64,000 nt of DNA from Chiloscyllium plagiosum. Its lineage: Eukaryota. The translations under genes were made by a program, and so were the position numbers. The DNA is taken from NCBI RefSeq assembly GCF_004010195.1, contig NC_057751.1, forward strand, positions 8,236,404 through 8,300,403, written 5' to 3'. Below, one piece after another: positions 1 to 62,944 of this stretch (the first letter of the stretch is position 1; each line of letters opens with the position of its first letter). Below the pieces are notes generated by a model that did no database searches, had not been told where the DNA came from, and saw only the letters and a list, made by a program, of their open reading frames with translations.

Positions 1-122
1 AGAAGGGCTTATGCCCGAAACGTCGATTCTCCTGTTCCCTGGATGCTGCCTGACCTGCTGCGCTTCTCCAGCAACACATTTTCAGCTCTGATCTCCAGCA
101 TCTGCTGACCTCACTTTCTCCT
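1..122 (+). mobile_element. PLE pseudo-LTR-derived short element, family A (HHR plus tail), cut by the window edge
   Basis: AGAAGGGCTTATGCCCGAAACGTCGATTCTCCTG...CTCCAGCATCTGCTGACCTCACTTTCTCC, near-identical to 41397-41521 and similar to 62129-62255. Confidence 0.85.
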
Positions 123-330
123 CAAAGAGGTACAAAGAGGCAAGGAAACACGGTGAGTAATGCAAAGGAGTGAGAGAAAGGAAATTGAGAGACAAATGCC
201 AAAGGCAGAGAGAAAGAGGGGGAAGGGAATGCTGAAGGATGGCAAGGGAGCAAGACAGAGGACACGCAAGAACTTCAACACTGAAACTAAAATATCACTG
301 ATGCTAGAAATCTGAAATGAACACACACAA

Positions 331-614
331 GTGGCTCAGTGGATTGTACTGCTGCCTCACAGCACCAGATTTGATTCCAGCTTCATCTGTGTGGAATTTA
401 CATTTTCTCCCCATGTCTGCATGGGTTTCCTCCAGGTGCTCCGGTTTCCTCCGGCGGTTCAAGGATGTGCAGGTTTGGTGAATTAACCATGATAAATTAC
501 CCACAGTGTTCAGGGATGTGTAGGTTAGGTGCATGGCAAACATAGAGTTGCAGAGTCTGGGTGGGATGCCCTTCCAAGGATTGGTGTGGACTTGTTGGAA
601 TGAATGGCCTGCTT
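331..614 (+). mobile_element. HE1-like tRNA-derived V-SINE, decayed
   Basis: tRNA-like head (GTGGCTCAGTGG...), V-domain TTCTCCCCATGTCTGCATGGGTTTCCTCCAGGTGCTCCGGTTTCCTCC, CR1-like tail. Confidence 0.75.
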
Positions 615-926
615 TGGGAATCCAAAACAAAACGTTGCTGGAGAAACTCAGCAGGTCTGGCTGCATCTGTGGAGAGAGAAATACAGGCAACTTTGAAGAA
701 CATCAAAACTGGTAGCAAATGTTGGCAATTCAGTCTCTGGAGCCTGTTCTGTCATTTAAAATTATCATGGTTGATTTCCTTTTGGCCTCAAATCCATTTT
801 AATACTCATTCCCAAAACACCTTAACCCAACACTAATTAAAAACCAATCTGCACCTTAAGTGTATTGAGTGTCCCACATTTTGGAGTCTTGGATTCCAAT
901 GCTTTGAGAAGACTAATTCCTGTCTT

Positions 927-1135
927 GGAGAAAGTGAGAACCACAGATGCTGGAGGTCAGAGTAGAAAGTGTGGTGCTGGAAATGCGCAGCCGGTCAGGC
1001 AGAATCCAGGGAACAGGAGAGTCGACGTTTCAAGTATAAGCTCTTCATCAGCTCTTCATTGAGCTTATGCCCGAAACATCAACTCTCCTGCTCCTCAGAT
1101 GCTGCCTGACCGGCTGTGCTTTTCCAGCACCACAC
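927..1135. mobile_element. Inverted pair of family A PLE pseudo-LTRs (minus arm 927-1051 with tail; plus arm about 1061-1135 without tail)
   Basis: Arms are reverse complements; minus arm reads CTGATGAAGAGCTTATACTTGAAACGTC; possible degenerate TSD TGTCTTG(G/C)AGA at 921-931 and 1141-1151. Confidence 0.8.
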
Positions 1136-1169
1136 CCCTTTGTCTTGCAGAGTCCAGTATGACTCTTCC

Positions 1170-1715
1170 ATGTGAAGACATTCCTGCACGGATTCCGGAC
1201 CACATTCAGACCGTCACAATTTGGACCTGAACAGGACAACTTCTACCTACAGCAAATCCAAAGCTTCCAGAAATGGTTCTCCCTCTGCTCCACACTCATA
1301 GCCATGCGCCGCCACCTACTCTTCCTGCAGTCAACCCTGCATCAGCTCAGGGCCACACTTTGCCAGACTGGATCAATGTGAATTTCACCAGTTTCCCCAT
1401 TTTCCCTCCCATCAGCTTATCCCAGTCCCAACCTCCCAACTCGACACCACCTTCAACGGTCTGACCTGTCCATCTTCCCTCCCATACATCCACTCCACCC
1501 TCCTCTCTGACTTATCACTTTTACCCCCACCTTCATCTACCTATCACTTTCCCAGCTACCCTTCCCCCCATGCCCACCCCCTCCCATTTATCTCTCAGCT
1601 CCCTCGGCCCACAAGACTCATTCCTGATGAGGGACTTATGCCCGAAACGTCAATTCTCCTGCTCCTCAGATGCTGCCTGACTAGCTGTGCTTTTTCAGCA
1701 CCACACTCTCGACTT
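1170..1715 (+). mobile_element. Internally deleted PLE: ORF N-terminal remnant fused to the GIY-YIG C-terminal end and pseudo-LTR
   Basis: Peptide HGFRTTFRPSQFGPEQDNFYLQQIQSFQ...AMRRHL (resembles PLE N-termini; recognition only), then WINVNFTSF (matches GTNVDFTSF of the GIY-YIG copy at 15.3 kb), a C-rich tract and an HHR at 1624-1651. Confidence 0.7.
1624..1651 (+). ncRNA. Minimal type I HHR motif with one stem II mismatch
   Basis: CTGATGA-G-GGAC-TTAT-GCCC-GAAAC-GTC. Confidence 0.6.
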
Positions 1716-2127
1716 GTGCACTGGTGTCAGTCTAAACTTATGCTGAGGTCATGGTTTGAGGTGGACCTTCTGACTTAGAGGTAACTCCCAATAATACCTT
1801 CACTTATCTCCCACTCAGTCTTTGTGACTCTGAGCTATTCATTCCTTTGTTTCCTGTCCGGCCTTTCTCATACTGTTCACGAAAACTGGATTGTGCATGC
1901 TCTCTCAAAAGCTAGTTCAGTTTTGTCAAAGGTTACTGAAGCTGAAGCAAACTAAATATTTAAACCTTCATTGCACCTTTTGTTCTTCCCCGCTGTGTGT
2001 GGTGTAATCATTGCTCAACAGGACGATAGTGATTTGTGCGCTTTTCAAATGAGGATTGGAGGGGATCGCTGTTGAATGTATTGCTGTCACGATCAGTAAA
2101 ACTGATTGAAGAAAGTTTTAAAGAAGG

Positions 2128-3186
2128 AACAAAAAATACAAAAGTGGTTTGAAGGGAGAAGACAGAGGCTGGTGGTGGAGGGTTGCCTTCCAGACTGGAC
2201 ACCTGTGACCACTGGTGCGCCACAAGGATCAGTGCTGGGTCCACTACTTTTCATCATGTATATAAATGATTTGGATGTGGACATAGGAGATATAGTTAGT
2301 AAGTTTGCAAATGACACCAAAATTGGAAGGGCAGTGGACAATTAAGGTTACCTCAGATTACAACGGGATCTTGATCAGATGGGCCAATGGGCTGAGGAGT
2401 GGCAGATGAAGTTTCATTGAGAAAAGCAAAATCAGGGCAGGAATTATACACTTAATGATAAGGTCTTTGGGCATTTGCTGAACAAAGAGACCTTTGAGTG
2501 CGGGTTCATAGCTCCTTGAAAGTGGAGTCTTCGGTAGGTAGGATAGTGAAGAACATGTTTGGTATGCTTTCTTTTATTGGACAGAGTATTGAAAATAGGA
2601 GTTGGGGGGTAATGTTGCAGCTGTAAGGACATTGGTTAGGCCACTTTTGGAATATTGCTTGCATGCAGTTCTGGTCTCCTTCCGATAAGAAGGATGTTGT
2701 GAAACTTGTCAGTGTTCAGAAAGGATTTACAAGGATGTTGCCAGGATTTGAGCTCCCGGCAGAGGCTGAATAGGCTGGGGCTGTTTTTCCTGGAGCGTTG
2801 GAGGCTGAGGGGTGACCTTACAGAAGTTTATAAAATTATGAGGGGCATGGATAGGATAAATAGACACTGCCTTTTTCCTAAGATGGGGGAGTCCAGAACT
2901 GCAGGGCATAGGTTTAGGGTGAGAGGGGAGAGATTTGAAAGGGACCTAAGGGGCAACTTTTTCATGCAGAAGATGGTACACGTATGGAATGAGCCGTCAG
3001 AGGAAGTGGTGGAGGTTGGTACAATTGCAACACTTAAAAGGCACTTGGATGGTATATGAATAGGAAGAGTTGAGAGGTATTTGGGCCAAGTGCTGGCAAA
3101 TGGGATTAGATTAAGTGAGGATATCTGGTCAGCATGGACAAGTTGGATCGAAGGGTCTGTTTCCCTACTGTACATCTCTGTGACTC
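2128..3186 (+). mobile_element. CR1-clade (HER1-like) LINE, 5'-truncated, decayed RT C-terminus and 3' UTR
   Basis: GAPQGSVLGPLLFIMYINDLD...SKFANDTKIG and LERWRLRGDLTEVYKIMRG; stops and frameshifts; 3' tail shared with the HE1-like SINEs. Confidence 0.92.
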
Positions 3187-3194
3187 AGGAATTC

Positions 3195-3650
3195 TGTGAG
3201 TAAAGGGAAAACAAAACAAAGCAAGACAGGTTAGTGGACAAGAAGAGCAGAGGAACTCAAAGGGAGGAATCTCAAATAGGAAGGGAAAAGGAGATGATTT
3301 AAGAGAATGAAACAAGAAAACTGAGGTAAGGGGAGAAACGAGGCTTGAGTAACTGAGAGAAAGGAGAAATAAAATTAGGTAGAATTAAATTGCATGCAGA
3401 CAGCGAGAGATTGAAAAATAGACTGGAGAAACAGTGACAAGTAACAACAGACAGATAGAGGAGTAAACCAAAAGCAGAGAGAGACTGAGAGAGATGGGGA
3501 CAGACAGACCCAGACAGGATGAAGAACAGACAAACGATAAACAGGAAGAGAGAGGGAAGGAGATAGATGAGAGACACCTATACTAAAAGACTGTGGTGGA
3601 GAGGGGAAGACTGCAGAGAAACATAATGTCAAAAGATGAAAAGCAGGCGA
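3195..3650 (+). repeat. Purine-rich (GA/AG) low-complexity tract
   Basis: Strong A/G strand bias with degenerate AGAG/GACA units. Confidence 0.6.
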
Positions 3651-6489: not shown

Positions 6490-7180
6490 TGGACACACAA
6501 AAATAATTCTATGCTGACACTCGGCTGAAGAACCCAAAGAGGGTGCTGTCTTGCAGATGAGGCACAAAGTCAGGGACATGTCCACCTCAGGAAAAATAGA
6601 CAAAGTCAACAGCTCTGGCAGCACCCATAGAGTCCAGTGACTCATCATAAGAGCCTGTGTACAGGCTCAGATTGATGTGAAAGGTCCCACTGCACTATTT
6701 CGAAGAATAGCTGCTATCACCAGGTTTCCTGGCCAATGTCTACTCTTCCCCAGTCACACCACAATCAAAGGGGCGGCACAATGCTTAGCACTGCTGCCTT
6801 ACAATGCCAGGGACCTGGGTTCGATTCCACATTTGGGTGACTGTCTGTGTGGAGCTTGCATCTCCTCCCTGTGCCTGTGTGGGTCTCCTCCCGCAGTCCT
6901 AAGATACCCAGGTTAGGGGGACTGGCCACGGGAAATGCAGGGTTATGTGTGTCTGCTCTTCGGAGGGTCAGCATGGAATCGATGGGCTCAAGACTCTCGG
7001 GATTGTATATAGATTACCTGGTTACGATGTGGTCACAGTGCTGCATTTGGGAGCTTGGTGCCTACAAATTGGCTGCAGCATTTGCAACAGTGACAGCACT
7101 CCAAAGGGAGTTCATTGGCTGTAAAACTCTTTGAGATATGCAGTGGCAGTGAAAAATGTTACATAGCTGCAGGCTTTTTG
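6490..7180 (+). mobile_element. DeuSINE (SacSINE1/AmnSINE1-like) remnant split by an HE1-like SINE
   Basis: Deu-domain-like GCACTATTTCGAAGAA...CCTGGCCAAT and tail GGGAGCTTG...AAATTGGCTGC...CATTGGCTGTAAA. Confidence 0.6.
6771..7010 (+). mobile_element. HE1-like V-SINE with internal deletion
   Basis: Head TTAGCACTGCTGCCTTACAATGCCAGGGACCTGGGTTCGATTCC with B-box, then V-domain. Confidence 0.8.
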
Positions 7181-7639
7181 CTTACCACCTGTTCTGCTGC
7201 AGAGTTAGCCAACATCACTGCAGTCTGGTCCATAAAACATCTTTTTACTCGTGGCACTGGACCAAGTCTGATGACAAAAGGAAACACTGGACCTACATTT
7301 TTTTTCTTAATATTCTTCGAGATAATAGCTATTTAACTTGTTTGAGGAGTGTCTGAGGAGCACTGGCACAGGCAGGTTTTGAGCGCTTGTGGCTAAAAGA
7401 TCCTGGTAATGAGGTGACATCCTCAGCAAGGGTTCAAAGGCTTCGATGGAGGCCGTCTGTGAGCTCCTTCAATTGGGGCAAAATACTGCAGATGCTGGAA
7501 ATCTCAAAAAAACAAACAGAATGCTGGAGAAACTCACAGGGTCTGGCAGCATCATTGGACAGAGAAACTGAGTTCATATTTCAAGTATGGGATGACCTCT
7601 TCCTATTACTCTCTACCAGTCTTCATCTATCCCGACCTC

Positions 7640-7826
7640 ACCAGTCCGCCCCTTTCCACACCCAAAATCCTGCCCCACCCATTGTCTGCAGCTTCTTTTC
7701 CACCCACCGCCAGTCCTGAAGAAGGGTTACACCAGAATCGTTGACTTCTCCACTCCCTAATGCTGCCTGGCTTGCTGTGTTCTTCCAGCCTCCTGCTCGC
7801 CTCACTCGGATTTCAGCATCTGCAGT
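7640..7826 (+). mobile_element. PLE pseudo-LTR, family C, with decayed HHR at 7712-7746
   Basis: AGTC-CTGAAGA-AGGGTTACACCA-GAATC-GTT-GACT; stem I AGTC/GACT; tail CAGCATCTGCAG; sister copy at 34490-34670. Confidence 0.7.
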
Positions 7827-7831
7827 TTTTT

Positions 7832-8113
7832 TACCCATCGAGTCTGTACCGACCCTCTGAGGAGCATCCCACCCAGAGACAACCCTATTCATGTAACCCT
7901 GCATTTCCATTGGTTAACGCACCCAGCCTGCACATCCCTGAACACTATGGGCAATTTCTCATGGCCATTACACCTATCCTGCTCATCTTTGGACTGTGGG
8001 AGGAAACCGGAGCACCCGGAGGAAACCCATGCAGACACGGGGACAATGTGCAAACTCCACGCAGACAGTCACTGAGGGTAGAATCGAACCCAGGTCCCTG
8101 GCGCTGCGAGGCA
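7832..8113 (-). mobile_element. HE1-like V-SINE
   Basis: Reverse-complement V-domain GGGAGGAAACCGGAGCACCCGGAGGAAACCCATGCAGACACGGGGAC and B-box GAATCGAACCC. Confidence 0.85.
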
Positions 8114-10028: not shown

Positions 10029-11023
10029 GTCATAGAGTCAAAGAGATGTACAGCATGGAAACAGACCCTTCGGTCCAACCCGTCCATGCCGACCAGATAT
10101 CCCAACCCCAATCTAGTCCCACCTGCCAGCACCCGGCTCATATCCCTCCAAACCCTTCCTATTCATATACCCATCCAATTGCCTCTTAAATGTTGCAATT
10201 GTACCAGTCTCCACCACATCCTCTGGCAGCTCATTCCATGCACGTACCACCCTCTGNNNNNNNNNNNNNNNNNNNNNNNNNNNNNNNNNNNNNNNNNNNN
10301 NNNNNNNNNNNNNNNNNNNNNNNNNNNNNNNNNNNNNNNNNNNNNNNNNNNNNNNNNNNNNNNNNNNNNNNNNNNNNNNNNNNNNNNNNNNNNNNNNNNN
10401 NNNNNNNNNNNNNNNNNNNNNNNNNNNNNNNNNNNGATAGGAAGGAGACCAGAATTGCACGCAATATTCCAACAGTGGCCTAACCAATGTCCTGTACAGC
10501 CGCAACATGACCTCCCAACTCCTGTACTCAATACTCTGACCAATAAAGGAAAGCATACCAAACACCTTCGTCACTATCCTATCTACCTGCGACTCCATTT
10601 TCAAGGAGCTATGAACCTGCACTCCAAGGTCTCTTTGTTCAGCAACACTCCACATTACCTTACCATTAAGTGTATAAATCCTGCTGAGATTTGCTTTCCC
10701 AAAATGCAGCAGATCGCATTTATCTGAATTAAACTCCATCTGCCATTCTTCAGCCCATCTGGTCCAGATCCTGTTGGAATCTTAGGTAACCCTCTTCACT
10801 GTCTACTACACCTCCAATTTTGGTGTCATCTGCAAATTTACTAACTGTACCTCTTATGCTCGCATCCAAATCATTTATGTAAATGACAAAACGTAGAGGG
10901 CCCAGCACCGATCCTTGTGGCACTCCACTGGTTAAAGGCCTCCCGTCTGAAAAACACCCTCCACCACCACCCTCTGTCTTCTACCTTTGAGCCAGTTCTG
11001 TATCCAAATGGCTAGTTCTCCCT
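10029..11023 (-). mobile_element. Younger CR1/HER1-like LINE 3' fragment inserted antisense into the older CR1; spans the N gap
   Basis: Minus-strand peptide MEFNSDKCDLLHFGK...LYRTLVRPLLEYCVQFWSP; TAGAGTCA-type tail at the left end. Confidence 0.88.
10257..10435. other. Assembly gap (179 N)
   Basis: Run of N. Confidence 0.99.
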
Positions 11024-11508
11024 GTAGGTCAAGGGACAGTTGGGAAGTGGGAGAACTTTAAAAATGAGTAACCAATAGTTCACAGATAATATGCTCCTGT
11101 TAGTGTGAAGGGCAAGGCTGGTAGGTGTAGGGAATGCCAGATGACTAGAAAAATTGACTTTCTGGTCAAGAAAAAAGACACGGCATATGTCAGGCATAAG
11201 CAGTGAATCCCTGGAGGACTATAAGGGCAGTGGAGTACACTTAAGAGGGAAATCAGGAGGGCAAAAAGGGGACATGAGGTAGCTTTGGCAATATGGTTAA
11301 GGTGAGTCCAAAGAGATTGCCTAAGTACATTAATATCAAAAGAGTGACTAGGAAGCGAATTGGGCCCCTTAAAGATCAGTGTGGCCATCGACATGTTGAA
11401 ACACAGGAGATGGGTGTGATACTAAATGAATATTTCACGTCAGTATTTACTGTGGACAAACACATGGAAACTGGGGAACATGGGGGAAAACACAGATGCC
11501 ATGAAAAT

Positions 11509-11597
11509 TCCTGAAGAAGGGCTCATGCCCGAAACGTCGATTCTCCTGTTCCTTGGATGCTGCCTGACCTGCTGCGCTTTTCCAGCAACACATTTTC
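11509..11597 (+). mobile_element. 89-bp family A PLE-derived element (HHR plus body, no tail) with 12-bp TSD
   Basis: TSD TGCCATGAAAAT at 11497-11508 and 11598-11609. Confidence 0.9.
11511..11538 (+). ncRNA. Minimal type I HHR motif, intact core
   Basis: CTGAAGA-A-GGGC-TCAT-GCCC-GAAAC-GTC; weak stem I ATTC/GATT. Confidence 0.7.
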
Positions 11598-11669
11598 TGC
11601 CATGAAAATAGTTCATATCACAGAAGAGGAGGAGCTGGAAGTCTAAAAATTCATATATGTAGTTAACTT

Positions 11670-12092
11670 GCTGGAAAATCTCAGCAGGTCTGGCAGCATC
11701 TGTAAGGAGAGAAAAGAGCTGACATTTCGAGTCTAACTGACCCTTTGTCAAAGCTAAAAAAAGGGGGATAAATAGGGAGGTATTTATACTGGGCTGAGAG
11801 AAGGTGAGTCATGGCTCCAGAAGCAAAGGTAGCAATAAAGAGATGATAATGACAGTGCATAGAGAGATAGGGAGATTAGGAGCTGTGAATGACCAAGGCT
11901 GAAGCCAGTGCGATGTGACAAAATATATGGGGGATGGGTGAAGCAGAGGCAAAAATGCTTTGACAAAGGGTCATTTAGACTCAAAACATCAGTTCTTTTC
12001 TCTCCTTACAGATGCTGCCAGACTTGCTGAGATTTTCCAGCATTTTCTCTTTTGGTTTCAGATTCCAGCATCCGCGGTAATTTGCTTTTATT
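11670..12092. mobile_element. Family B PLE inverted pseudo-LTR pair with 14-bp TSD
   Basis: TSD TA(T/C)GTAGTTAACTT at 11656-11669 and 12093-12106; minus arm 11670-about 11955, plus arm about 11957-12092 with tail. Confidence 0.85.
11717..11755 (-). ncRNA. HHR variant with U3-A8 core
   Basis: Minus strand AGCT-TTGACAA-A-GGGTC-AGTTA-GACTC-GAAAT-GTC-AGCT. Confidence 0.65.
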
Positions 12093-12351
12093 TACGTAGT
12101 TAACTTCATGGGACCTGATCTGGTGCTTTCCAGAATGTTCTGGGAAGTTTGGGAAGAGATTGCCAGGCACCTTGTATCATCAACAGCCACAGGTGAGGTG
12201 CTTGAAGACTGGAGGTTGGCGAACATGGTGTCACTATTTAAGAAAGGTGGTAAGGAAAAGCCAGGGAACGAGAGAGCAGTAAGCGCTTATGTCAGTGGTT
12301 GGCAAGTTGTTGCAGGCGATTCTGAGGGTCAGGATTTACATGCATCAGGAA

Positions 12352-12480
12352 GAAAGTGAGGACTGCAGATGCTGGAGAGTCAGAGTTGATAAATCAGGGG
12401 AAGAAAAATGATGTCTGAAATATCAACTCACTTGCTCCTCGGATGCTGCCTGACCTGCTGTGCTTTTTCCAATGTCGCAC
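12352..12480. mobile_element. Older family A inverted remnant (minus tail plus plus-strand body)
   Basis: Degenerate TSD TTTACATGCATCAGGAA (12335-12351) / TTTACACGTATCTGGAA (12481-12497); GGATGCTGCCTGACCTGCTG. Confidence 0.7.
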
Positions 12481-14082: not shown

Positions 14083-14565
14083 CATAGAACATAGAACAAT
14101 ACAGCGCAGAACAGGCCCTTCAGCCCTCGATGTTGCGCCAACCTGTGAACTAATCTAAGCCCACCCCCCTTCACTATCCCACCATCATCCGTGTGCTTAT
14201 CCAAGGATTGTTTAAATCTCCCTAATGCGGCTGAGTTGACTACATCGGCAGGTAGGGCATTCCATGCCCTTACCACTCTCTGAGTAAAGAACCTGCCTTT
14301 GACATCTGTCTTAAACCTATCATCCCTCAATTTGCAGCTATGCCCCCTCGGACAAGCTGACGTCATCAACCTAGACTTTCACTGTCTACCCTATCTAATC
14401 CTCTGATCATCTTGTATGTCTCTATCAAATCTTCCCTTAGCCTTCTTCTCTCCAATGAGAACAGACCCAAGTCTCTCAGCCTTTCCTCATAAGTCCTTCC
14501 CCCCAGACCAGGCAATATCCTGGTAAATCTCCTCTGCACCTTTTCCAATGCTTCCACATCCTTCT
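14083..14565 (-). mobile_element. CR1-clade LINE 3' fragment
   Basis: KKDVEALEKVQRRFTRILPGLGGRTYEERLRDLGLFSLERRRLREDLIETYK; CATAGAA-repeat tail. Confidence 0.9.
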
Positions 14566-15007
14566 TGACTTGGAAATATATAATTGTTCCTTCACTGTTG
14601 AGAGGCCAAAGTCCTGGAAATCCCTCATCTACTGCCTTGTGGCTCTCCCCACACCAGGGTGACCACAGTGATACAAGGAGACAGCTCGCCATCACCTTCT
14701 CAAGGGAAACGTGAGTTGGGATAAATGCTGGCCGAGCCAGCACCACCAACACAAAGGAAGAAGGAAGGTGATTGGATTGGAATACACAATTCTTCAAAGC
14801 CTTGTGAAGTTGGATGCTGTACCTCCTGAAATGGGGAGTCGAGAACCAAGGGTTATGGTCTGAGGTTCAGGAATCAGATATTTAGAGCTGAGATGAAGCC
14901 AAATGTTTCGACTCAAAGGCTTGTGAAGCTCTGTAACTTTCTAGGACACAGAACTTTAGAGGTTCAGTGATGGACAGTACTCAGGATAGACACCATGAGA
15001 TTTTCAG

Positions 15008-15560
15008 TCAAGTGTGTGGTGCTGGAAAAGCACAGCAGGTCAGGCAGCATCCAAGGAGCAGGAAAATTGATGTTTTGGGCAAAAGCCCTTCATCAGGAAT
15101 TAGGCTGGGAGCCTCGGGAGTGGAGGTAGCTGACTGCGCAAGATGGAGATGGGGGTAAAGGTGATAGTTGGGGGGCTGGACCAGATAGGTGGGAAGGAAG
15201 ATGGACAGATGGGACGGGTCATGAAGGTGGTGTTGAGCTGGAAGGTTGGAACTGGGGTAAGGTGGGGGGAGGGGAAATGAGGAAACTGGTGAAATCCACA
15301 TTGGTACCATGGGGTTGGAAGGTCCTGAGGCAGAAGATGAGGCATTCTTCCTCCAGACGTCGGGTGGTTAGGGAATGGCAATGGAGGAGATCCAGGACCT
15401 GCATGTCCATGGCAGAGTGGGAGGGGGAGTTAAAGTGTTCGGCCACGGGCAGTGGGGTAGATTGGTGCGGGTGTCCTGGAGATGTTCTCTGAAGCACTCT
15501 CTGAGGAGGCATCCTGTCTCCCCAATGTAGAGGAGACCGCATCGGGAGCAACAGATACAG
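15008..15560 (-). mobile_element. PLE 3' part: frameshifted GIY-YIG endonuclease followed by the family A pseudo-LTR with decayed HHR (15067-15096)
   Basis: CICCSRCGLLYIGETG...FREH then PVAEHFNSPSHS...GTNVDFTSF; downstream CTGATGAAGGGCTTTTGCCCAAAACATC. Confidence 0.9.
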
Positions 15561-16914
15561 TTCTCCTCCTTTCTTATTAAAGTCAAAGATCAGTTCTCTA
15601 GTTTTGCCGAAGTTGAGAGAGAATGGTTTGGGCCAAAGGGCCTCTTCTTTGGTGTCTGACTTTATGAATCGAGTGACATGGGATCAGGACAGCGATGTGG
15701 ATTTAAGAATGAAGATCAACCATGATCGTCTTAAATGGAAGCCAGTTGAGACTCAATGGGATGACATTCTCTCCACTTTATGCCCTTCTGCTGGTGATAG
15801 TGATAACAGGGGTGTGGGTGCTTTTTAGAAACTGGCCTCAAGTGGAAACACATGGACGCAAGGGTGTTCATCATCACATCCTGTTTCCGTCACACTCATC
15901 ACCCACTCCTCCCTTGGATTGTAATACTTCATTTAACACTTTAAACTGCGCACAGGACAGAACAGCAGCTTGTCTAACCTCTCTCCACTCTCAGGACACC
16001 CATTCACCACAGGACAGAAAGACAAATATTCAGACTACCACAAGTCAAAGCGACGAGCAGCCTGTGCAGAGTTCAGGTAATACGCAGTTTGACCGAGTCC
16101 GTGCGGCGGACATGGTTTAAAAGAAGTTACTTGAGCAGCAAAGGGAGAGCAAGGCTGCTGGCTGCTTGTGTGAAGATAATTAAGAATTCAGCATTTTCTT
16201 TTTCTAAAATTAAATCTGCCTTCGTGAAGAGCCCACAAAAGCTTCCAGGCAATCGTGCCTCAAATTCCCAACTGTGGCTCACATATAATCCACACTATTG
16301 TTCAAGACTCTTGCTCAACAAGCTGCTGATAATCCTCCCATTATTGAACTCTGGAAGGGCACATATCAAATCTTCAGCCTTGTAAAACAGGATGTACACA
16401 AAACTGTGCACCAATTACTGAATGACTCATTTTCCTATACACAGACATAAAAACAGAGTTTCCTAATTCCCTACAGCTCCTGGTTACTGTCCGCAGTGTG
16501 GTCCTTGCTTGCTTGACCACAGAGATCTGAGTGGTCTCTTTCTGTGCCATAGTCTTTCTACGGTTCTGAAACAGCAGTCCCTTTCATTTCACTTTACAAT
16601 GGGGTAATAAGCACGTTTACTTTCATTTTTTATTGAGTTAGACAACAGCCATTCGCTGTTCAGGTGAAGATGAGAGAGGCAGCAGACTCAGAATCAGAAG
16701 AAACTTGCTGACCATAGTATTCTTAAGAGTGCGGGTGCAGATACCCAACACCATCAGTGAGCTAACAGCAGTGCAGGCTGAGATTCAGGAAGGCAGCACA
16801 ATCCTTGCTGTTAGCAGCACCAGCACAAACCATTCAGTGCTTAAACCAGCAAGAACATGGGGGCATTTATAAGTTCAGCCCCACACTCAATAAGGTATTC
16901 AACAGGTGAGGTGT

Positions 16915-19247: not shown

Positions 19248-19563
19248 GACGGCACGGTGGCTTAGCAGTTAGCACCGCTGTCTCTTGGACCAGGGACCTG
19301 GGTTCAATTCCAACCTCGGGTGCCTGTCTGCGTGGAGTTTGCACATTCTCCCCGTGTCTGTGCAGGTTTCTTCCGGGTGCTCCGGTTTCCTCCACACAAT
19401 CCAAAGATGTGCAAGTCAGGTGAATTGGCCATGCTGAATTGCCCATAGTGTTAGGTGCATCAGTCAGGGGTAAATATGGGTCTGGGTGGGTTACTCTTCG
19501 GAGGGTTGGTGTGGACTTGTTGGGCCGAAGGGCCTGTTTCCATGCGGTAGGGAATCTAATCAA
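19248..19563 (+). mobile_element. HE1-like V-SINE, full length
   Basis: tRNA head, V-domain, tail TTGGGCCGAAGGGCCTGTTTCC...GGAATCTAATC. Confidence 0.88.
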
Positions 19564-20013: not shown

Positions 20014-20025
20014 AAAGTCAAAGAG

Positions 20026-20218
20026 GAGAAAGTGAGGACTGCAGATGCTGGAGATCAGAGCTGAAAAAGCGCAGCAGGTCAGGCAGCATCCAAGGAGCAG
20101 GAGAAGGGCTCCTGAAGAAGGGCTGATTCCTGAAGAAGGGCTCATGCCCGAAACGTCGATTCTCCTGCTCCTTGGATGCTGCCTGACCTGCTGCGCTTTT
20201 CCAGCAACACATTTTCAG
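20026..20218. mobile_element. Family A inverted pair with stuttered junction and 15-bp TSD
   Basis: TSD ATCAAAGTCAAAGAG at 20011-20025 and 20219-20233. Confidence 0.9.
20125..20162 (+). ncRNA. Minimal type I HHR motif, intact core
   Basis: GATTC-CTGAAGA-A-GGGC-TCAT-GCCC-GAAAC-GTC-GATTC (stem I: 4 pairs plus a U.U mismatch). Confidence 0.72.
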
Positions 20219-20919
20219 ATCAAAGTCAAAGAGCAAGGTGAAGAAGTTGAAAGTTCAGATGAGGTAAAGTGAGACTCAATAGGATGCAAAGAGTAACGAA
20301 TGAGGTTTGGAATGTGAAAGAGTCAAAAATAAAAATTGAGAGTCACCAGAGTGAGTATGAATATTACTCCAGGGAGCAGTACAAGTCCAATCCCTTTGAT
20401 TGCTAAAATCGGTTCTGACTAACATTTTTGATAGAGGCAGAGGAGGCGCAAGAGGGTAGATGGTGTGCATGCATGGTGCAAAAGACATTTGTTCCAACAC
20501 TGTACTGTTCTGAGGAGGAGTCAAATAGGACCTTTCCTCTTTCCACAGATATTGCCAGACCTGCTGAGTTTCTCCAGCATTCTCTGTGTCCCCCCTGTCG
20601 ACAAGTGATTTGAGACAACTAGGGAAAGCACCTTTTGAAAGGCAACAGCAGACACACGGTGAACAGTCTGCACTCAACAAACAGTAATGTGATGACCAGA
20701 CAATTGATTTTTGTCACGTTAATTGAGGGATAAGTATGGGCCAGGGCGCCGGGGATAACTCGGCTTTGAAGTAGTGAAGAAATTAAATCATAATTCTTAG
20801 GCTGTAACCTCTGAAAGGGAACAAGTGAGAGAAACAGAAAGAGATGTGGGACAATGTTGGTCAAAGCATTACAAAACTACAAAGGAGAGCTGATTTTCTA
20901 TGAAGTCGTTTTTTTTTTG

Positions 20920-41367: not shown

Positions 41368-41395
41368 GACGTTTCGGGCATAAGCCCTTCTTCAG
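41368..41395 (-). ncRNA. HHR core (5' strand of stem I lost at the junction)
   Basis: Minus strand CTGAAGA-A-GGGC-TTAT-GCCC-GAAAC-GTC. Confidence 0.6.
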
Positions 41396-41396
41396 G

Positions 41397-41424
41397 CTGA
41401 AGAAGGGCTGATGCCTGAAACGTC
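41397..41424 (+). ncRNA. HHR core (5' strand of stem I lost at the junction)
   Basis: CTGAAGA-A-GGGC-TGAT-GCCT-GAAAC-GTC. Confidence 0.55.
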
Positions 41425-41689
41425 GATTCTCCTGTTCCTTGGATGCTGCCTGACCTGCTGCGCTTTTCCAGCAACACATTTTCAGCTCTGATCTCCAGCA
41501 TCTGCAGTCCTCACTTTCTCCTTCCAGAAAGAGCTTCCCTTCCACCCCCATCCACCCCCTTCCCCTCATTTGGCCTGTACTCTTGCAAAGACCCTCAAAA
41601 CAGAAAGGAAAATGTAAGGAAAAAGATAACAATATTTATGAAAAATCAAATGGCTCATATCCATCCATCAGTCGTTTGACATTCAATTA

Positions 41690-44770: not shown

Positions 44771-45067
44771 GGGATGGCATGGTTAGCACTGCTGCCTCAC
44801 AGTGCCAGGGACCCAGGTTTGATTCCTGCCTTAGGCGACTGTCTATGTGGAGTTTGCACATTCACCCTTTTCTGTGTGGGTTTCCTCCCACAATCTGAAA
44901 ATGTGCAGGTTTGGTGAATTGGCCATACTAAAATTGCCCACAGTATAGGTTATTAGTAAGGGGTAAATATAGGGCAGGGGAACAGGTCTGGGTGGGTTAC
45001 TCTTTGGAGGGTCGTGTACACTTGTTGGGCCGAAGGGTCTGTTTCCACACTGTAGGGATTCTAATTC
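44771..45067 (+). mobile_element. HE1-like V-SINE
   Basis: GGTTAGCACTGCTGCCTCACAGTGCCAGGGACCCAGGTTTGATTCC...GGGATTCTAATTC. Confidence 0.85.
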
Positions 45068-47855: not shown

Positions 47856-50800
47856 AAAAAATATGGTCTGCAATGCTTTTGAAATAAAAACAGTGCAGGT
47901 TTCCCCAGCGCCCTGGTCTTGAGTTAATCCTGAACCCAACTTGATTGATGAGTAGGACCTGCTCATTATGACAATGCTGCTTTGCAGGAGTGTGTAGTGT
48001 GCTGATTGGCTGCTGCAGGTAACCTCAAGAAAGCACCTGATTCAGTGTAAAGCATTTCAGGACGTCCAGTGGTTGTGAGAGGCACCATAGCTCACATAAA
48101 CTTTTTTTTTAAAAGAAAGAAAATTCCTTTGCAATTTCCTTTTCCTGCAAAACAGTTGCACAATCCAGCTATTGGTCATGTCAAACCCCGCAATGTTCCA
48201 CCTTTTCTGAATTGTATGCTCCTGTTGCTTAAATCACCTCAAGTCCCACTCACACATCAATTCTGTGCTCGCTAATCTGCACTGATTCCTGGTCTGGCAA
48301 TACCTCGAGTTTAAACTTCCTTGCTTTGAAACTGTTTCACCATTCCCTGTCTTTGTAAACTCCTTAAGCTGTTCAAGGCTTCTGCACTCATCCAGTTCCG
48401 GTTGGGCATCTCAACATTAGCGCTCAACGCTGGGTGGATAATATTGTGTGCTTTGGAGTTCTTCCACAAAGCAGGATATGGACCTCACTCAGTTCCTGCC
48501 TCTACTGACGTTAGGTCTAGGCCATCTCATACCCACCCATCCCTCCAACCCCCAGACACCCAATGAGACCCTCCAGTGAGTGAAGAATGTTTGCTTAAGA
48601 ACCCTCGTTTCCCCTCTTCCATCTAATGCTTGTCATCAACCAGTGAGCGTGTTCAGAAGGGACTGTGGAAACAGGGCTGAATCATAGGTTATTGAAAGCT
48701 GCAGATCCATTTGAGTTTGCACAAAACCGGACAACATAGAGGTAGGTCATTCAGTCCACTGCTCTCCATTCAATGAGATTGTGGCTGATTTGATAATCCT
48801 CAACTCTATGTTCCCACCTTTTCCCCATAAAACCCAATTGTGTAATTGATTGAAAATCTGTTGGTCTCAGCCTTCATTGTACTGAACTAAGCACCCTCAA
48901 CAAACAATTCCACAGATTCGCAGCCCTCTGACAGAAGAAATTTCTATTAATCTCTGTCTTTAGCGTGCAACAAATTATGCCCTCTGGTCCTAGACTCTCC
49001 CACAAGGGTAACTAAGCTTTCCTCATTTACTTTGTCAAGTCCTCGAAACATCTTATATGTTTACCTTGTATGGTTGATTACCAGCATCCATGAAATATGC
49101 AATGTGAACTGAGTGGATAGCATTGTGCTGGGGGACTGGGGAGATGTTGGGGAGGTGTGCGGGGGAAGAAGGAAAACAGCTGAATTGAGGAATAATCTCA
49201 CTTCAGCACGAATACTGCAACGAGGGCACATAAAAATAGCCCTACTTCAGACTTCACCAGGGGAAACTAAACAACGGAGTCACCACACCTCAAAAAGCAG
49301 CAAGAGGCTTTCTCATTTGTTTTCTTACCTTCTTTGCAATGCAAAGCATTATCATTTACCCTGGTAGGCTGACTATATTATCAAGCATCAAGATAACTTC
49401 TGTGGAACACAGCATTTCAGATAGTTAGACGGGAAAGATTAATGGAGTAGGCTTTTCAATAACTCTGTGTTGCACAGAAGGAGAATCGTTTAGCAAGGGT
49501 GTCCATTCTCACAACTAAAAACAGACAGAACGTTCACAACACAGAAACCAATTATGATTCACAAATATGCAGGTTATACTCTGCCAACACAATACAAAAA
49601 TGGTCATCCCCACTGACTGTTCCAGTTTCCTTCAAGTTCTCACTTCTTTGCATTAGCTCCACACTATCTTCCAGAATTAAGTTGCATATTTTCTCATTGG
49701 GAACAACTAAGGCTATAAAATGGCACCACACAAATACCAATGTTACGCGCGTAATAATGTTGTTTTGTCATTTTAATGTAACATAAATTAGGTCTGTGGA
49801 TTTAAGATTTCTAGTGGCTTTACTTATAACTTATCTCAAACACACAGCAGAGTAATCTCCAGTCACAGCCTGTGCCTTGAGGGTTACAGTGCAGGGAACC
49901 TGTGGCCAATGGTCATGTGATAATATGTGGAGAACTGACTCATTTGCATTTTGATCTCTCAAAGGAACATTAATCCAAAAGTGAGGATATAACAAGTTGC
50001 AATTTATGAGATTCTACAGATGTTGTTTCAACTACATGACGCCACTGAGTTGCAAACAGATCTGATAATGTACTTTGATCCCTGATATTCGCACAATGTA
50101 AATCAAGGGCTTAAATGTTAAATACAACATCTTGCGTCCAAGTAACAATTCTAGTCAGCATGATCATAAACATGACATTTACATTTTTCTTGTGCAGTGC
50201 TCAAACATCAGAGAAATGATACATGTATGTTATAACCATACGTGCACTTGCACAAAAAAAACAGCCCATGTACTTGCTTCTCTAAGAGGTGCATTTAACA
50301 GCAGAGAGAACTTTATAGTGATCAGGGACTTGAAGGCTAATCAACCTTGACCCTTGTTATTCTTTCAGTAATCTTTGCTGACAGGTGCATTGCAACCCAA
50401 GACCCACCATGACCCAGTTGATGGTGCATTTTCCTTGCTACTGGAAAGGAAATTGGAAATTTCAAATTGGAAACTGGTTGCTTTTGGCTTCTCAATTCTG
50501 CAAAGATGTTGACGTTTGCTGGGAATCAGTTCTGTGAGTGTTGCTCAATCAGCAAAAGATCACACATGTGCCCACTCTTCGTGCACAAATTTCAACAATA
50601 ATTCCAAGCATTTTATCAGTCAGTGTCACAGGCTGTGTTAACTTCAGTCATAGCTTCATTGACAGATGGTGCGTGCACACCCACACGAAGAGGCTGGGAC
50701 ACCAGGCCCCATTATCCATTGGTGAATCAAGATAAGAAAATCAACTGCTTACCTTAGATTCAACTGTGAATTCGGAAATCGGAAATGAAAGCTCGACAGG

Positions 50801-51295
50801 TCAGGCAGTGTCTGTGGAGAGACAGGGATGGAGTTAACCTTTCAGACAGCACATCAGAACCTGCAAAGTGAGCAGTGATGGGGCTTTGTGACAGACTTTC
50901 ACTTTGGTTCTCTCCCACACACTACACCCCCAACTCAGAACCCAACTCGCTACCTCTTTCCCCTACCCCTGCAGTAGCTTAAAACCTGTAGTATCTCCAG
51001 ATTTTTCAATTTTGAAAGAATTGTCACTGCCCTGAGAGGCTAACTCAGTTTTTCTCTTTGCAGTTATTTTTGATCAGCCGAGTGTTTCCCATTCTTCCAG
51101 GTTTCAGGGCACACCATTCTCACAGAGCAGACCTGAGACTGGCAAACCTCTTACCACAGTCTTGTGGATCAACTCTAGAATTTCCTGCTGCTAATGGATG
51201 AGTTACACGTGGGACCGATTTATGTAGGCCAGTATGAAATCTGCTCAGGATATTCCACCCCCAGCAGACAAAGCCAACATGTTGCTTGCCCATCC

Positions 51296-55612: not shown

Positions 55613-55858
55613 AGGCAAGTAAGATGTGTTCCAGTAATGCTCCAGTTCTACATCCATCTGCAGCCTGCTTAAATATTTTCTAAGAGTCTAACAACACCAG
55701 GAATATTGTAGACAGAGAAACCTATCTAGTTCTCTATATATAGACGAAACACTGCAAATATTACATTTGCAAAGTCGGGGTCAAAATCAGAGTTGCCATA
55801 CCCTTAATAAGTGGCAGAGGAGAGTTGAAGGGCTGAAGGACATACTCTTGCTTCAAAT

Positions 55859-55983
55859 TCACCAGGGGAAGGAGCAGCACTCCGAAAGCTGGTGATTTCA
55901 AATAAACCTACTGGACTATAACCTGGTGTTGTGTGACTTCTGACTTTGTCCATCTCAGTCCAACGCTGGCAGCTCCACTTCAT
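55859..55983 (+). mobile_element. Family D PLE-like pseudo-LTR with decayed HHR
   Basis: TCAC-CAGGGGA-A-GGAGCAGCACTCC-GAAAG-CTG-GTGA, then GGACTATAACCTGGTGTTGTGTGA as in 40266-40395. Confidence 0.68.
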
Positions 55984-57476
55984 CGAATTCAGTCGACGTT
56001 CTATCCTTCCATTACTAACCGTCAGGAGCAGCAGTTAACATTTTCACGCACTCACTCAAAACGCGAATGCCTCAAGTGTGTGATTGGACGGCCGATCTTG
56101 GGGGGGTCTTGTACCAAGCGAGGCGGGAGCTTCCTTCACTTCCTCAGCCTGCATCTTCAACCAGGCTGCGTGGGACCCCCGTGATCATTTTTCACCTTTG
56201 ATACACTGATGCAACGTTATTGCAGGCAGTGCCTCATTGGAATAGAGCATAACGACTTGACAAGCTCCTGTACATCAAGAGTTGATGCCTCTGAAGGGAC
56301 GCCAACGGATTAAAAAGTAATGCAAAGATGGACAAAGTAAACCTGGTGCACCGGGATATCAGGGCCATAGGTCATTTGTGGATTAAGACAGGTGCTGCAG
56401 TAGGTTGCGAGTGGGTCCAGTTGTAACCAAGATGACTGTGACACAATTAAATGTAAAGAAGTAAAGATTGGCATTCTGAAAGCGCCATGTCAAATCTGAA
56501 CCAACCTTGGAATAAATTCGATTTGTTTTATGCACAGAGCACTGTGTCAATAATTGTTTTGCATGCTAATCAACAAAGGTAATTGTTATAATTCTTTTCT
56601 CAACCAAAAACACTGTGAGCACCATAAATTTGTGGATGAGCACCACACTTTTTACATAAGCAACACATTTATAGGCATAATTTGTTAATTATTGCACAAA
56701 ACTCCACCACAAAGAATTACCATTTAAATTGCACTGAGGATCAAGTGCTAGACAGAATTGAGAATTAAAATTATTCTAAATGCTGAGTTAATATATTCAA
56801 GAAAACTTCAATGCTTTCTGACAAAGCCTGATCGATGTTTATTGCCCCGATTGGAAACATGCTCTTTTCAACAAAAGCAAGCACCTGTTTACACTCAACA
56901 ATTATCATTTTAATCCTTGAGTGTTGCTGACCTCAAGAGTGCTGTCTCTTTCAATGTACCTTGTGTTGGCACTCGAACGTGATTGAAACCCTTGGCTTTA
57001 GGGTCAGATGAGTTCTAATCCAGACCAGAAATTTGAGCTCAGGATTAACACTGACTGTCAAGAGTGTGATGTATTGTTGACGGTGCAATCCTGAGTACAA
57101 GGCTCTTTTGGGTGTTTCAGATGGCTGCTGATTCCATGGAACATCTTTGTCACCTCAGAAGATTAGCACCCAAAAAATTGGTTTAATCGTCTTGTTGCTT
57201 GCGGGTTTTTGCTGAGCATGTTTTCGGAAAGGACAGCAGAGATTACAGTCCATAATGTAATGAAGGGGCTTGGTGAGGTTCCAAAAGCAAGTGGCAAATT
57301 GGCAATATGTGCGAGTCGTTCTTGGGGATTTATTTTATTTATACTACAGAACTTAAATAAGTGCCTCATGAACCCCTCTGCCCTCTGATTTTGTGAACAT
57401 TTTATGTGGGCCTTTAAGATTTGGTTCCTGCCCATCACATCCCTTGGCGCTCTCTTGTTTTAACAAAGCTGAATCT

Positions 57477-60280: not shown

Positions 60281-60572
60281 TGATGGCACAGTGGTTAGCA
60301 CTGCTACCTCACAGCGCCAGGGTCCCAAGATCGATTCCAGCCTCGGGACGCTGTCTGTGTGGAGTTTATACATTTTCCTTGTGTCTGTGTCGGTTTCCTC
60401 CCACAGTCCAAAGATGTGTGCAGGTCAGGTAAATTGGCCATGTTAAATTGGCCATAGTGTTCGGTACATTAGGCAGAGGGAAATGGGTCTGGGTGGGTTA
60501 CTCTTCGAAGGGTTGATGTGGACTGATTGGGCCGAAGGGCCTGTTTCCACACTGTAAGGAATCTAATCTAAT
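60281..60572 (+). mobile_element. HE1-like V-SINE
   Basis: TGGCACAGTGGTTAGCACTGCTACCTCACAGCGCCAGGG...GGAATCTAATCTAAT. Confidence 0.87.
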
Positions 60573-60979
60573 GCCTGCAAATGTCGAAAAGATCTTTTGC
60601 ATGCAAGCTTCACGTAAGGGAAGGTCAGAATCTCGGTTCTTTCTGCATTCCCTTTGGCAAAAGGCATTCAGAACTCAGAACCTGCATTATCTTGCTGTTC
60701 CGTCCAAACTGTTCCATCTTTCTGCCCAGCATGCCCTAGGATGAGAGTTGTGCTCATGTCCAGTCAATCACATTGTTAATGTTTGTTCCAATAGTTGTTT
60801 CGGTTAAGACAACCAGCTGCTGGGTTCTGATCAGCTTTTTGCCCATACAAGTACAAAGTGAGAGGCTCTTGTGGCACAGTGGTAGTGTTATAACATCCCT
60901 CAACAGTTTGATTTGAAAATATTGGCATTTGGGCAGCTGGGTCTCTAAGGTTAGGATAAGACCTGTGAGATTTACCTGA

Positions 60980-61690
60980 GGAAAGATGTTCTGGCTGTGG
61001 AGGGAGTGCTACAGATTGATTCCTGGAATAGCAAGACTGACATCTGAAAAGAGATTGGATCGCCGAGGACTATATTCATTGGAGTTCAGAAGAATGAGGA
61101 GGGATCTCATTAAAATCTATAAAATTCTAATCGGGTTCAACAGGATAAACACAGGAAGGATGTTGCCAAGTGCTGGGGAGTCCAGAACAAGGGGTCTCAA
61201 AGATACAAAGTAGACCATTTATGACTGACATGAAGGGAAATGTCTTCAGTCAAACAGGGATGAGCCTGTGGAATTCTCTGCAACTGAAAGCGATTGAGTA
61301 CAATGCACAGAACATTTTCAAGAATGAGTCAAACACACATATAGAGTCACAGAGACATAGACCTGTACAGCATGAACACAGATCCTTGAGTCCAACTCAT
61401 CCATTCTGACCAGATATCCTAAATTAATCTAGTCCCATTTTCCAGCATTTGGACCATACCCCTCTCAGCCATTCCTATCCGTATAATCATCCAGATGCCT
61501 TTTAAATGTTGTAATTGTACCAGCCTACACCACTTCCTCTGGTAGCTCGTTCTGAGGGCTAAAGGGATCAGATAGTATGGGGATAAAGCAGGAACAGGAG
61601 ACAGACAGTTGGATGATCAGCCATGATCATTCTTTTGGTGGGGCAGACTCGAGGGGCCGAATGGCCTATTCCTGTTCCTAGTTTCTGCAT
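60980..61690 (+). mobile_element. CR1-clade LINE 3' fragment with a nested antisense HER1-like tail (61341-61551)
   Basis: GLYSLEFRRMRRDLIKIYKIL; nested TAGAGTCACAGAG tail. Confidence 0.75.
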
Positions 61691-62125
61691 TTCTAAATTT
61701 TGTCCGTGAGGTTGAGGAACTCAAGCTTGGTTTCAATCTCACTCGTCGCTGATTCATTGAACCTTCATCCAGGCACGTTCACTGGAAAAAAGTTCTCAAC
61801 AAAACATTTACCCAAAGAATAAACACACTGACATCCACATTACACCCGAGCACCTGGAAACATTGCAAAAGTGATGTTCATAATGTTTCAGTTTGAAGAA
61901 TATTAACTGCCATGTTGAGAAATGCATTCACACTGCAGTCATCCACCACACCGCAATACTTTCCGAGTTAAGTTCTTTTCTTATCATCTTCATCTAAAGA
62001 AGATTGGGACTGAAAAGAGGAGAACAACTCTTTGGTCATCTTCAAATAGGCTCCATCAGATTGAACATCATCCAAGTCAATGACACAGCAAGACAAGAAC
62101 CTTGGTTTCATGTCTTTAAAAACCA

Positions 62126-62165
62126 GGATTCCTGAAGAAGGGCCTGTGCCCGAAACGTCGAATCT
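62126..62165 (+). ncRNA. Best-formed minimal type I HHR in the window
   Basis: GGATTC-CTGAAGA-A-GGGC-CTGT-GCCC-GAAAC-GTC-GAATCT: 5 WC pairs plus G.U in stem I, 4-bp stem II, GUC triplet ending at 62159. Confidence 0.78.
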
Positions 62166-62255
62166 CCTGTGCCCTGGATGCTGCCTGACCTGCTGTGCTG
62201 TTCCAGCAATAAAGTTTCAACTTTGATCTCCAGCATCTGCAGACCTCACTTTCTC
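62129..62255 (+). mobile_element. 127-bp family A element (HHR, body and tail) with perfect 15-bp TSD
   Basis: TSD CTTTAAAAACCAGGA at 62114-62128 and 62256-62270. Confidence 0.92.
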
Positions 62256-62944
62256 CTTTAAAAACCAGGACCACTGATAATGTTATATCACTTCAGCGGC
62301 ACACTGAAGCATCGGCCTAAGTAATATCATCAGCACCCCAATGTGATGGGTTTCTTTCACAACCTTCAATGAGGATAATAACACCAGCTGGGCCAAGCTG
62401 ACCTTAACAATAATTTAGGCTATAAAATCTAAGCACTCCTGTCAATTTGCAACAAACATTCGCATTCCAGATTAAATTGATGCAGAGCAATGTGCGCGTG
62501 TAATTCAATTTTGGGATCCAGTTAATGAATATAAAACACTAACAGCTCAGTTGGTTCCTATTTATTGAGGTTTTATGAATCCCTCAATCGAATTAATGTT
62601 CTTCAACCCCTTGGTAGACATCCAGGCCCCCACGAAGCTGAAACACATCTACCACTTAACTGAAGCTCATGTTAAAAATTAAACAGAGCTACATCAAGAA
62701 CAATAGCTCAAAGATAACAAGGAATATTTCCATCACTTAATATGGATTTCAAAAGCTTCACATGTGGTGTAGACAGGTAACAAGTTGTGTCGCTGTAACG
62801 AGGCCTTCCTGATTTGTTCAGAATAAAGTATTTCTGAAACGTAGTGACTCCTTGTCGCATGGATAAATGTAGGAACCACTTCAAATGCAAACATCCCACA
62901 CTGACTTGCCAGTTAATGTGGTTTTGATCATTATTTCTGTGGGA

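Follow-up and report, generated by a model that had tools for sequence, protein, structure and literature searches.

Minimal type I hammerhead motifs in pseudo-LTR fragments of Penelope-like elements of Chiloscyllium plagiosum

A stretch of 64,000 nt from the genome of Chiloscyllium plagiosum (RefSeq assembly GCF_004010195.1, contig NC_057751.1, positions 8,236,404 to 8,300,403 of the forward strand; "the window" denotes this whole stretch) contains many short motifs resembling the hammerhead ribozyme. It is virtually certain that these are minimal type I hammerhead sequences lying in the pseudo-long terminal repeats (pLTRs) of several families of Penelope-like elements (PLEs), most of them Neptune-like. 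The short pLTR fragments that carry the motifs, hereafter stubs, are likely run-off reverse transcripts of the uncut 5' end of the element's RNA and are likely inert. The motif class is already known, minimal hammerheads having been described in the pLTRs of metazoan PLEs (Cervera & De la Peña 2014, PMC4209133); what is added here is the unusual abundance of the motifs and the statistics of their 5' ends, a modest new handle on the PLE mechanism. The depth of copies lets insertion ends bear on the role of the hammerhead in PLEs, and these ends point to a transcription start that can be tested.

Hammerhead motifs and their genomic load

A profile search of the window recovered 29 pLTR fragments, 18 of them spanning the hammerhead core. 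Motif positions are numbered from C3 of the first core box (+1), which places the predicted cut of the A families after +28; the family letters (A1-A4, B-F, H and H2) are labels of the present analysis. An earlier, sequence-only reading had listed 21 sites, and all of them (21/21) lie in a pLTR fragment of a hammerhead-bearing family. Its estimate of about 20 motifs from at least four families holds only in part: the 21 sites are real, but some are paired head-to-head arms within a single target-site duplication, which leaves 17 insertions, and the families number about nine. The sites counted separately at 1021/1061, 11717/11957, 30555/30591 and 41368/41397 are in each case the two arms of a head-to-head pair; the last three pairs each lie within one duplication of 11-15 nt, and the first shows only a 7-nt match. 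Further remnants beyond the list were found at 624-677, 7478-7586, 12351-12467, 20024-20105, 20510-20587 and 50788-50822. The number of motifs exceeds chance: a strict descriptor gives 6 matches in the window and 0-1 in each of five simulated control windows, and a loose descriptor gives 12 compared with 2-6.

The core boxes CUGANGA, GAAA and UH occur in type I order in nine window copies with a canonical core (any stem III dinucleotide being allowed) and in two more with a U3-A8 core. Stem II has at least 4 bp in six of the nine, four of which also keep three of the four pairs of stem I. The two U3-A8 copies, at 11751 and 30589, have full stems I and II; with them included, six window copies combine a core, stem II and most of stem I. 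Six cores had been called intact, and of these six only the one at 62132 has a complete 4-bp stem I: stem I has a U-U mismatch at 11511 and 20130 and lacks its 5' strand at 41395 and 41397, and stem II is broken at 1624. A fifth stem I pair at 62132 comes from the target-site duplication and not from the element. Among the sites described as variant, partial or decayed, those at 1, 1061, 30591 and 40310-40345 are indeed partial, but the copy at 34571 has an intact core, a GUU triplet and all four stem I pairs, and those at 11751 and 30589 are U3-A8 core variants rather than decayed motifs. The numbers given for the minus-strand sites are the low ends of the motifs and not C3, which lies at 1051, 11751, 15096, 30589, 32658, 34571 and 41395.

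That the stems vary in sequence and keep pairing across families was confirmed by a shuffle test. Family majority sequences were built from 4-57 real copies each, required to reach stem I and to match seven of nine core letters, with stem II lengths set by the analyst. Across eight lineages, 81 of 86 pair cells are paired, compared with a mean of 55.7 and a maximum of 68 in 20,000 shuffles that ignore kinship between families; controls with slid registers gave 11-26 of 70. Two-sided changes affect stem I pairs 1-2, stem II pairs 2-4, stem III and the 3-8 core pair. Pair 1 of stem I is C-G, U-A or A-U, pair 4 of stem II is C-G, U-A, G-C or A-U, and the loopless palindromic stem III is C-G in most families and G-C in E. 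Both compensatory stem changes between families and the G10.1-C11.1 closing pair are present. For family B, which has 1,027 exact matches, the 3-8 core pair of the first 100 listed reads U-A in 93, C-A in 6, U-G in 1 and C-G in 0. The type I topology, this covariation and the linkage to open reading frames (ORFs) with reverse transcriptase (RT) and GIY-YIG domains, described below, uphold the attribution to minimal hammerheads of PLE pLTRs. The 16 Rfam hits obtained at E values up to 5 include no hammerhead; those on window hairpins were of microRNA type only, all below gathering scores. Folding predictions for dimers did not produce the catalytic dimer for most families.

The motifs share many features with the minimal hammerheads of PMC4209133: type I topology, no loop III, a palindromic 15.2-16.2, an extra base between 9 and 10.1, the G10.1-C11.1 pair, a stem I of 3-5 bp, numerous families in each genome, copies that are mostly truncated and single, the occurrence of head-to-head pairs and, in that study for Schistosoma, a U3-A8 variant. 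They differ in number, at least 146,893 here by another descriptor, and in the short stem II of 4-6 bp.

The sequence-only reading had proposed that the genomic load would be very large if the window were typical. The window is typical of the genome in motif density: 40 random stretches of 10 kb (382,422 non-N bases) contain 137 fragments, 85 of which cover the core, or one per 4.5 kb, compared with 18 in the 64 kb of the window, or one per 3.6 kb. Extrapolation yields about 756,000 core-covering copies (604,000-934,000, Poisson limits only) and an estimated 210,000 (137,000-318,000) with core, stem II and three of four stem I pairs. A genome scan found 146,893 matches to a generic intact-core pattern and 121 to the reversed pattern as control (3.56 Gb), and one family pattern alone has 87,506 exact matches. 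Among 20 core matches in random DNA, 18 also have stem II and three of four stem I pairs, and five have a full stem I. The density of about 41 per Mb compares with about 4.5 per Mb in axolotl, for which 126,247 canonical motifs are reported (PMC7229834), and the load exceeds the other published counts compared, about 9,000 in Xenopus and 4,000 in coelacanth (PMC4209133); this comparison is rough because descriptors differ. We found no report of a shark hammerhead count in the literature searched, mostly without subscription papers, and the files searched of the PMC4209133 supplement contain no shark term.

This is a load of DNA motifs and not of active ribozymes, because most motifs are isolated, decayed or locked in hairpins. 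Head-to-head hairpins bury the motif in 78 of 166 fragments, a same-strand neighbor lies within 1 kb of 24 of 103 core-covering copies, and CpG decay has affected the GAAA box or the cut site of most copies. Each copy needs a partner because loop III is absent, and no window copy has gained a stem III. Most copies are very probably inert where they lie. In RNA run X19, 1,812 of 12,955,460 reads fall on L185, one of the parent loci presented below; depth over the motif region is about 100-fold above that of the ORF and about equal in both directions, a pattern consistent with many copies being passively read through. Near-perfect head-to-head hairpins number in the thousands and could supply host transcripts with much double-stranded RNA.

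Parent elements

The window holds one broken C-terminal end of a PLE ORF (GIY-YIG region) at 15219-15683 on the minus strand; the motif at 15096 follows about 120 nt downstream. This motif (15065-15100, GAAA box decayed) belongs to the A3-type 3' pLTR of the same copy (15016-15125, minus strand). The ORF end alone has no Pfam match, and neither have the six window frames searched against Pfam, a library without a PLE-specific family. Parents were traced by searching the genome with this frame and then walking upstream at the matching loci. Its translation matches at 71% (E = 5.6e-15) the ORF of locus L078, a single frame of 725 aa with RT, a Cys-rich linker and, at the C-terminal end, a GIY-YIG domain, with a motif 366 nt downstream. 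The Atlas neighbors of this ORF are HTH_animal/RVT_1/GIY-YIG at 0.96-0.97. At L185 and L174, an upstream pLTR motif precedes the first ATG by about 165 nt; L174 has the motif in both repeats, 1,175 nt apart, and L185 in the upstream repeat. None of the loci examined holds a gap-free full-length element. L174 and L164 are internally deleted copies with the ORF start kept, and L174 joins this start in frame to the GIY-YIG end. Long "open frames" among the genome matches turned out to be runs of N; many long genomic PLE copies are broken by such runs, as is a window fragment of a long interspersed nuclear element (LINE), by 179 N at 10257-10435.

Most families sit downstream of PLE GIY-YIG ends, and in near-complete elements the motif is also present ahead of the ORF. 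The L078-type ORF is matched upstream of A1 motifs at 12 of 30 loci, in one of them inverted. Among 48 long copies of the other families, A4 and D give tblastn matches to the ORF end, and E and F show the motif of the endonuclease (EN) end in one copy each; A2 has no ORF match among its long copies, and its untranslated region (UTR) is common to A1. In longer copies, the stub of each young family runs on into UTR and ORF. The long copies of H and H2 have an EN end different from the L078 type, which we take to be Poseidon-like. These two families, absent from the window, have a 6-bp stem II and a 3-bp stem I (L086:2150-3000, L197 and L205).

A Cys-rich linker (CX2-5CxxC) lies between RT and EN in the translations of L078, L048 and L050 and in family D, and the assignment to the Neptune clade is a putative one resting on this motif. 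The elements resemble Neptune-clade EN+ PLEs, as defined by Craig et al. (2021, PMC8557442), in the RT, the CX4CxxC linker and the C-terminal GIY-YIG, and also in partial tandems, an inverted 5'-truncated copy and a tail of 30-40 bp at one end; H and H2 differ in that no linker-based Neptune call applies to them. Truncation at the 5' end, an inverted 5' copy, the optional tail of 30-40 bp at one end and target-site duplications were all found here.

Insertion ends and the origin of the stubs

We analyzed the 5' ends of 150 Neptune-like copies from the window and random DNA, leaving out copies at locus edges or beside N. Sixty-five begin at -12 to +4, 28 further upstream, 22 at +5 to +27, eight at +28 to +32 and 27 later. 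The A3/A4 peak may be inflated by UTR differences between subfamilies; A1/A2 (18/35) are free of that. A box about 31 nt upstream of the peak reads TATA in B, E and F and TTTATC in A and D; its position is -34 to -36 in A, B, D and F and -39 in E. The 5' ends of E have a median of -6.5, compared with -2 to -3 in A1, A2, A4 and B, such that box and ends have both moved by about 4-5 nt. Solo copies with clean duplications begin at -3 to -1 (62128, 11507 and 41124 in the window, and L199). The 3' ends are bimodal near +90 and +125, about 35 nt apart, which corresponds to the known optional tail, and 68 of 81 head-to-head pairs combine one long and one short arm, with 40 expected.

We slightly favor an origin of the stubs by run-off at the transcription start. 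Driven by the TATA-like box of the pLTR, the RNA would begin at the 5' strand of stem I or just ahead of it. On uncut RNA, the RT would prime within the 5' pLTR, using one of two sites some 90 and 125 nt downstream, and would run to the 5' end of the RNA, leaving stubs of 95-130 bp that lack the promoter; head-to-head pairs would result if both nicked strands were primed. To cut, the ribozyme of a live element would need to be a dimer or to have the help of a protein, and it would act at a step other than the one that makes the insert. Two-site priming agrees with in vitro work on the anole Poseidon element PAc (Frangieh et al. 2024, PMC11167929), where the RT is reported to start at two sites, which gives rise to the tail, to extend both strands and to use mainly uncut RNA as substrate; there the hammerhead is dispensable for insertion and no reads are reported to end at the cut site. 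PAc differs in that its ORF begins inside the hammerhead, whereas here the first ATG is about 165 nt downstream, with the tail before it. The type of PLE promoter varies, because a putative TATA box and initiator are published for a rotifer pLTR (PMC3846280) and an internal TATA-less promoter for Penelope of D. virilis (PMC2377424). In the literature searched, of the scope given above, we found no report of 5' ends at the pLTR start.

A broader reading, which we advance tentatively and which may well be wrong, is that the genome is a fossil record, in several hundred thousand copies, of the PLE cycle in vivo. The RNA of Neptune-like PLEs would start about 31 nt below a TATA-like box, its very first fold being the hammerhead, uncut RNA would be reverse-transcribed, and each head-to-head insertion would be one event with priming at both RT start sites, one per target strand. 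If so, the hammerhead would be a switch that removes the cap or trims the 3' end and takes RNA from the template pool, rather than a maker of templates.

Inserts made from cut templates were sought among A1/A2 copies without the GAAA box, which number 1,337 of 73,112 anchored copies, or about 6.5% after correction for a capture rate of about 0.28. The first 100 listed of the 1,337 were scored by hand and seven were dropped (two duplicate arms, one A-to-G edited copy and four with small indels). The 93 breakpoints at successive positions from +25 to +39 (5, 7, 4, 6, 11, 3, 7, 9, 6, 9, 7, 3, 7, 4 and 5) are evenly spread (chi-square P = 0.61), the cut site, at +29, being the highest (11/93; single-position P = 0.05 before correction). 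From these 93, copies starting at the cut site amount to about 0.8% of the 73,112. Less than 1% of the young-family starts thus lie at the cut site, and the inserted RNA was therefore likely uncut. A smaller set had hinted at a peak at the cut site (7 of 69 A1/A2 ends at +29 to +31); the genome-wide sample does not bear it out, and several A1/A2 junctions at these positions use stem I microhomology. In two of the 100 copies (G000:C1:63251069 and C1:31161756), a small internal deletion starts or stops precisely at the predicted cut site. An A1-type copy (G000:C1:6645559-6645624, minus strand) has a cluster of about six A-to-G changes within 28 nt of the motif and looks like an insert copied from adenosine-deaminated RNA.

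Several observations weigh against the account given so far. On the side of identity, both Pfam matches of the L078 ORF (RVT_1, E = 2.8e-6; GIY-YIG, E = 6.5e-4) are below the curated cut-offs, families B and C have no ORF tie in the one long copy available for each, and stem I of A1, A3 and A4 contains the U-U mismatch, the predicted fold pairing the CUGA box with the cut-site region. On the side of the transcription start, the box of A and D is TTTATC and not a canonical TATA, the box position comes from one long copy in B and from one of three in F, and the 5' ends of E are bimodal, with 6 of 24 at -2. In H and H2, clear TATA boxes are present at -47 and -52, yet the 5' ends form no pile-up: 0 of 10 lie at -12 to +4 and 0 of 18 near the predicted starts. 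An extra G derived from the cap is weakly seen (9/20 with 5 expected, P = 0.04), several cases being explained by microhomology. RNA reads show no pile-up of starts or ends and no splice joint, in one sample of a fragmented single-cell poly(A) library unsuited to starts and cuts. Finally, short or 5'-OH RNAs could be lost before insertion, and for this reason the scarcity of cut-site inserts does not show that the RNA is never cut.

Some of these points also bear on the strongest alternative, which keeps the identity of the motifs and attributes the 5' pile-up to a pause of the RT at a protein-bound or folded site, to an endonuclease nick at the ORF-pLTR junction or to antisense self-priming. 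We regard it as a serious possibility, if the lesser one. The anole enzyme is reported to prefer ATT just beyond the ORF-pLTR junction (PMC11167929), and ATT is present at the peak in the A families; a pile-up without it is nevertheless seen in B, C, D, E and F. Antisense self-priming has been invoked for head-to-head palindromic junctions (PMC3846280), and 23 of 29 peak ends of A1/A2 are in head-to-head pairs, but the solo copies with clean duplications also begin at -3 to -1. Similarly, the failure of H and H2 to follow their TATA boxes favors another cause, whereas the E peak moves along with its box. The AG is retained in B and F copies and RNA reads contain no skipping joint, which led us to reject a splice acceptor at the motif edge.

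It is improbable that the stubs are self-propagating non-autonomous ribozyme elements, similar to retrozymes or short interspersed nuclear elements (SINEs), excised by the hammerhead from host transcripts, circularized and re-inserted. Animal retrozymes (Cervera & De la Peña 2020, PMC7229834; bioRxiv 2026.07.22.740005) resemble the stubs in their type I hammerheads, very high copy number and kinship with PLE pLTRs, from which they are said to derive in the preprint; it samples one chondrichthyan and finds retrozymes there. The uniform length of the stubs and the about 100-fold excess of RNA reads over the stub region could be read in the same way. Retrozymes, in contrast, form head-to-tail tandem units with a short stem III, whereas the window has no such arrays of whole units and its copies are solo or head-to-head, without loop III. 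Moreover, stubs start upstream of the cut site and not at it, they lack the upstream box, those of young families continue into UTR and ORF in longer copies, and the RNA depth is two-directional and tracks copy number. Three H2 copies at L086, considered as a retrozyme array, are inverted duplicates of a PLE end.

It is very unlikely that some copies are domesticated ribozymes that process host transcripts, as intronic hammerheads of amniotes do: although the estimated 210,000 copies keep core, stem II and three of four stem I pairs and many are transcribed, they require a partner for want of stem III (gained by none in the window), 78 of 166 fragments are hairpin-locked, and ordinary CpG decay runs through the GAAA box and the cut site. 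Chance matches of short boxes within palindromic repeats, for which the missing Rfam match and the several chance hits of loose descriptors per window might speak, are scarcely credible: the matches number 146,893 versus 121, and every helix as well as the 3-8 core pair has undergone compensatory change.

Insertions along the window and neighboring repeats

The best motif of the window is that of a solo A2 stub (62128-62257, plus strand) with a long tail and a 15-nt duplication; its stem I joins 62128-62131 with 62160-62163, its core starts at 62132 and the cut is predicted after 62159. Two other solo stubs, and a stub at the window edge, lie on the plus strand. An A1 stub at 11507-11600 begins at -3 and has an intact core and stem II, three of four stem I pairs and a 12-nt duplication; a family F stub at 41124-41219 has a 13-nt duplication, an intact core and decayed stems; and an A1 stub with a long 3' tail (1-128), clipped by the window edge, begins at +5.

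Head-to-head insertions, spanning both strands, are frequent. The A1 insertion at 41306-41522 has a 15-nt duplication and intact cores in both arms (41395 minus, 41397 plus), the 5' strands of stem I being lost, and forms a near-perfect hairpin of about 90 bp. A second A1 insertion, at 20024-20221, also has a 15-nt duplication; its plus arm carries an intact core at 20130 with three of four stem I pairs, preceded by a partial repeat at 20112, and its minus arm begins at +31. Two insertions belong to family B. The first (11669-12089, a single 11-nt duplication) has in its minus arm a U3-A8 motif at 11717-11755 with four stem I pairs, a 5-bp stem II and a TATA box 36 nt upstream, and in its plus arm, from 11955, a decayed GAAA box. 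The second (30498-30706, 14-nt duplication), which folds as a long hairpin, has a U3-A8 motif at 30555-30593 in its minus arm and a partial plus arm. An insertion of A1/A4 type at 923-1135, with a duplication match of only 7 nt, consists of a minus arm (923-1051) with an intact core, a 3-bp stem II and no stem I and a plus arm (1063-1135) that begins at +11. The family E insertion at 40265-40396 has a 14-nt duplication and no whole motif in either arm. An old coreless head-to-head remnant at 12351-12467 was absent from the list of the sequence-only reading. Three of the insertions are predicted to fold as long near-perfect hairpins: 41306-41522 (-177 kcal/mol), 30498-30706 (-127 kcal/mol) and 923-1135 (-121 kcal/mol).

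Among the remaining copies on the plus strand, an A4 copy with its upstream 3' UTR (1504-1707) has a motif at 1620-1655 with an intact core and a broken stem II, a family D copy (7668-7833) has CUGAAGA at 7716 and a mutated GAAA box, a family C stub (33132-33250) retains its stems with a decayed core, and an old family E copy (55847-55987) has a decayed first core box; a decayed F-type copy at 20510-20587 was likewise missing from the earlier list. On the minus strand are a decayed F-type stub (32552-32660) and a family D copy with its upstream UTR (34483-34691), whose motif at 34541-34575 has an intact core, the GUU triplet and four stem I pairs.

Other repeats are abundant in the window. Many broken LINE fragments with RT-like translations, presumably CR1-like, occur on both strands (10113-10781, 14366-14866, 2181-3195, 26903-27322, 29486-29933 and 61343-61572). 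A dispersed SINE-like repeat is present at 386-636, 6775-6935, 7919-8078, 19384-19561, 44773-45066 and 60281-60568, and several hammerhead stubs elsewhere in the genome are inserted within or beside members of this repeat family.

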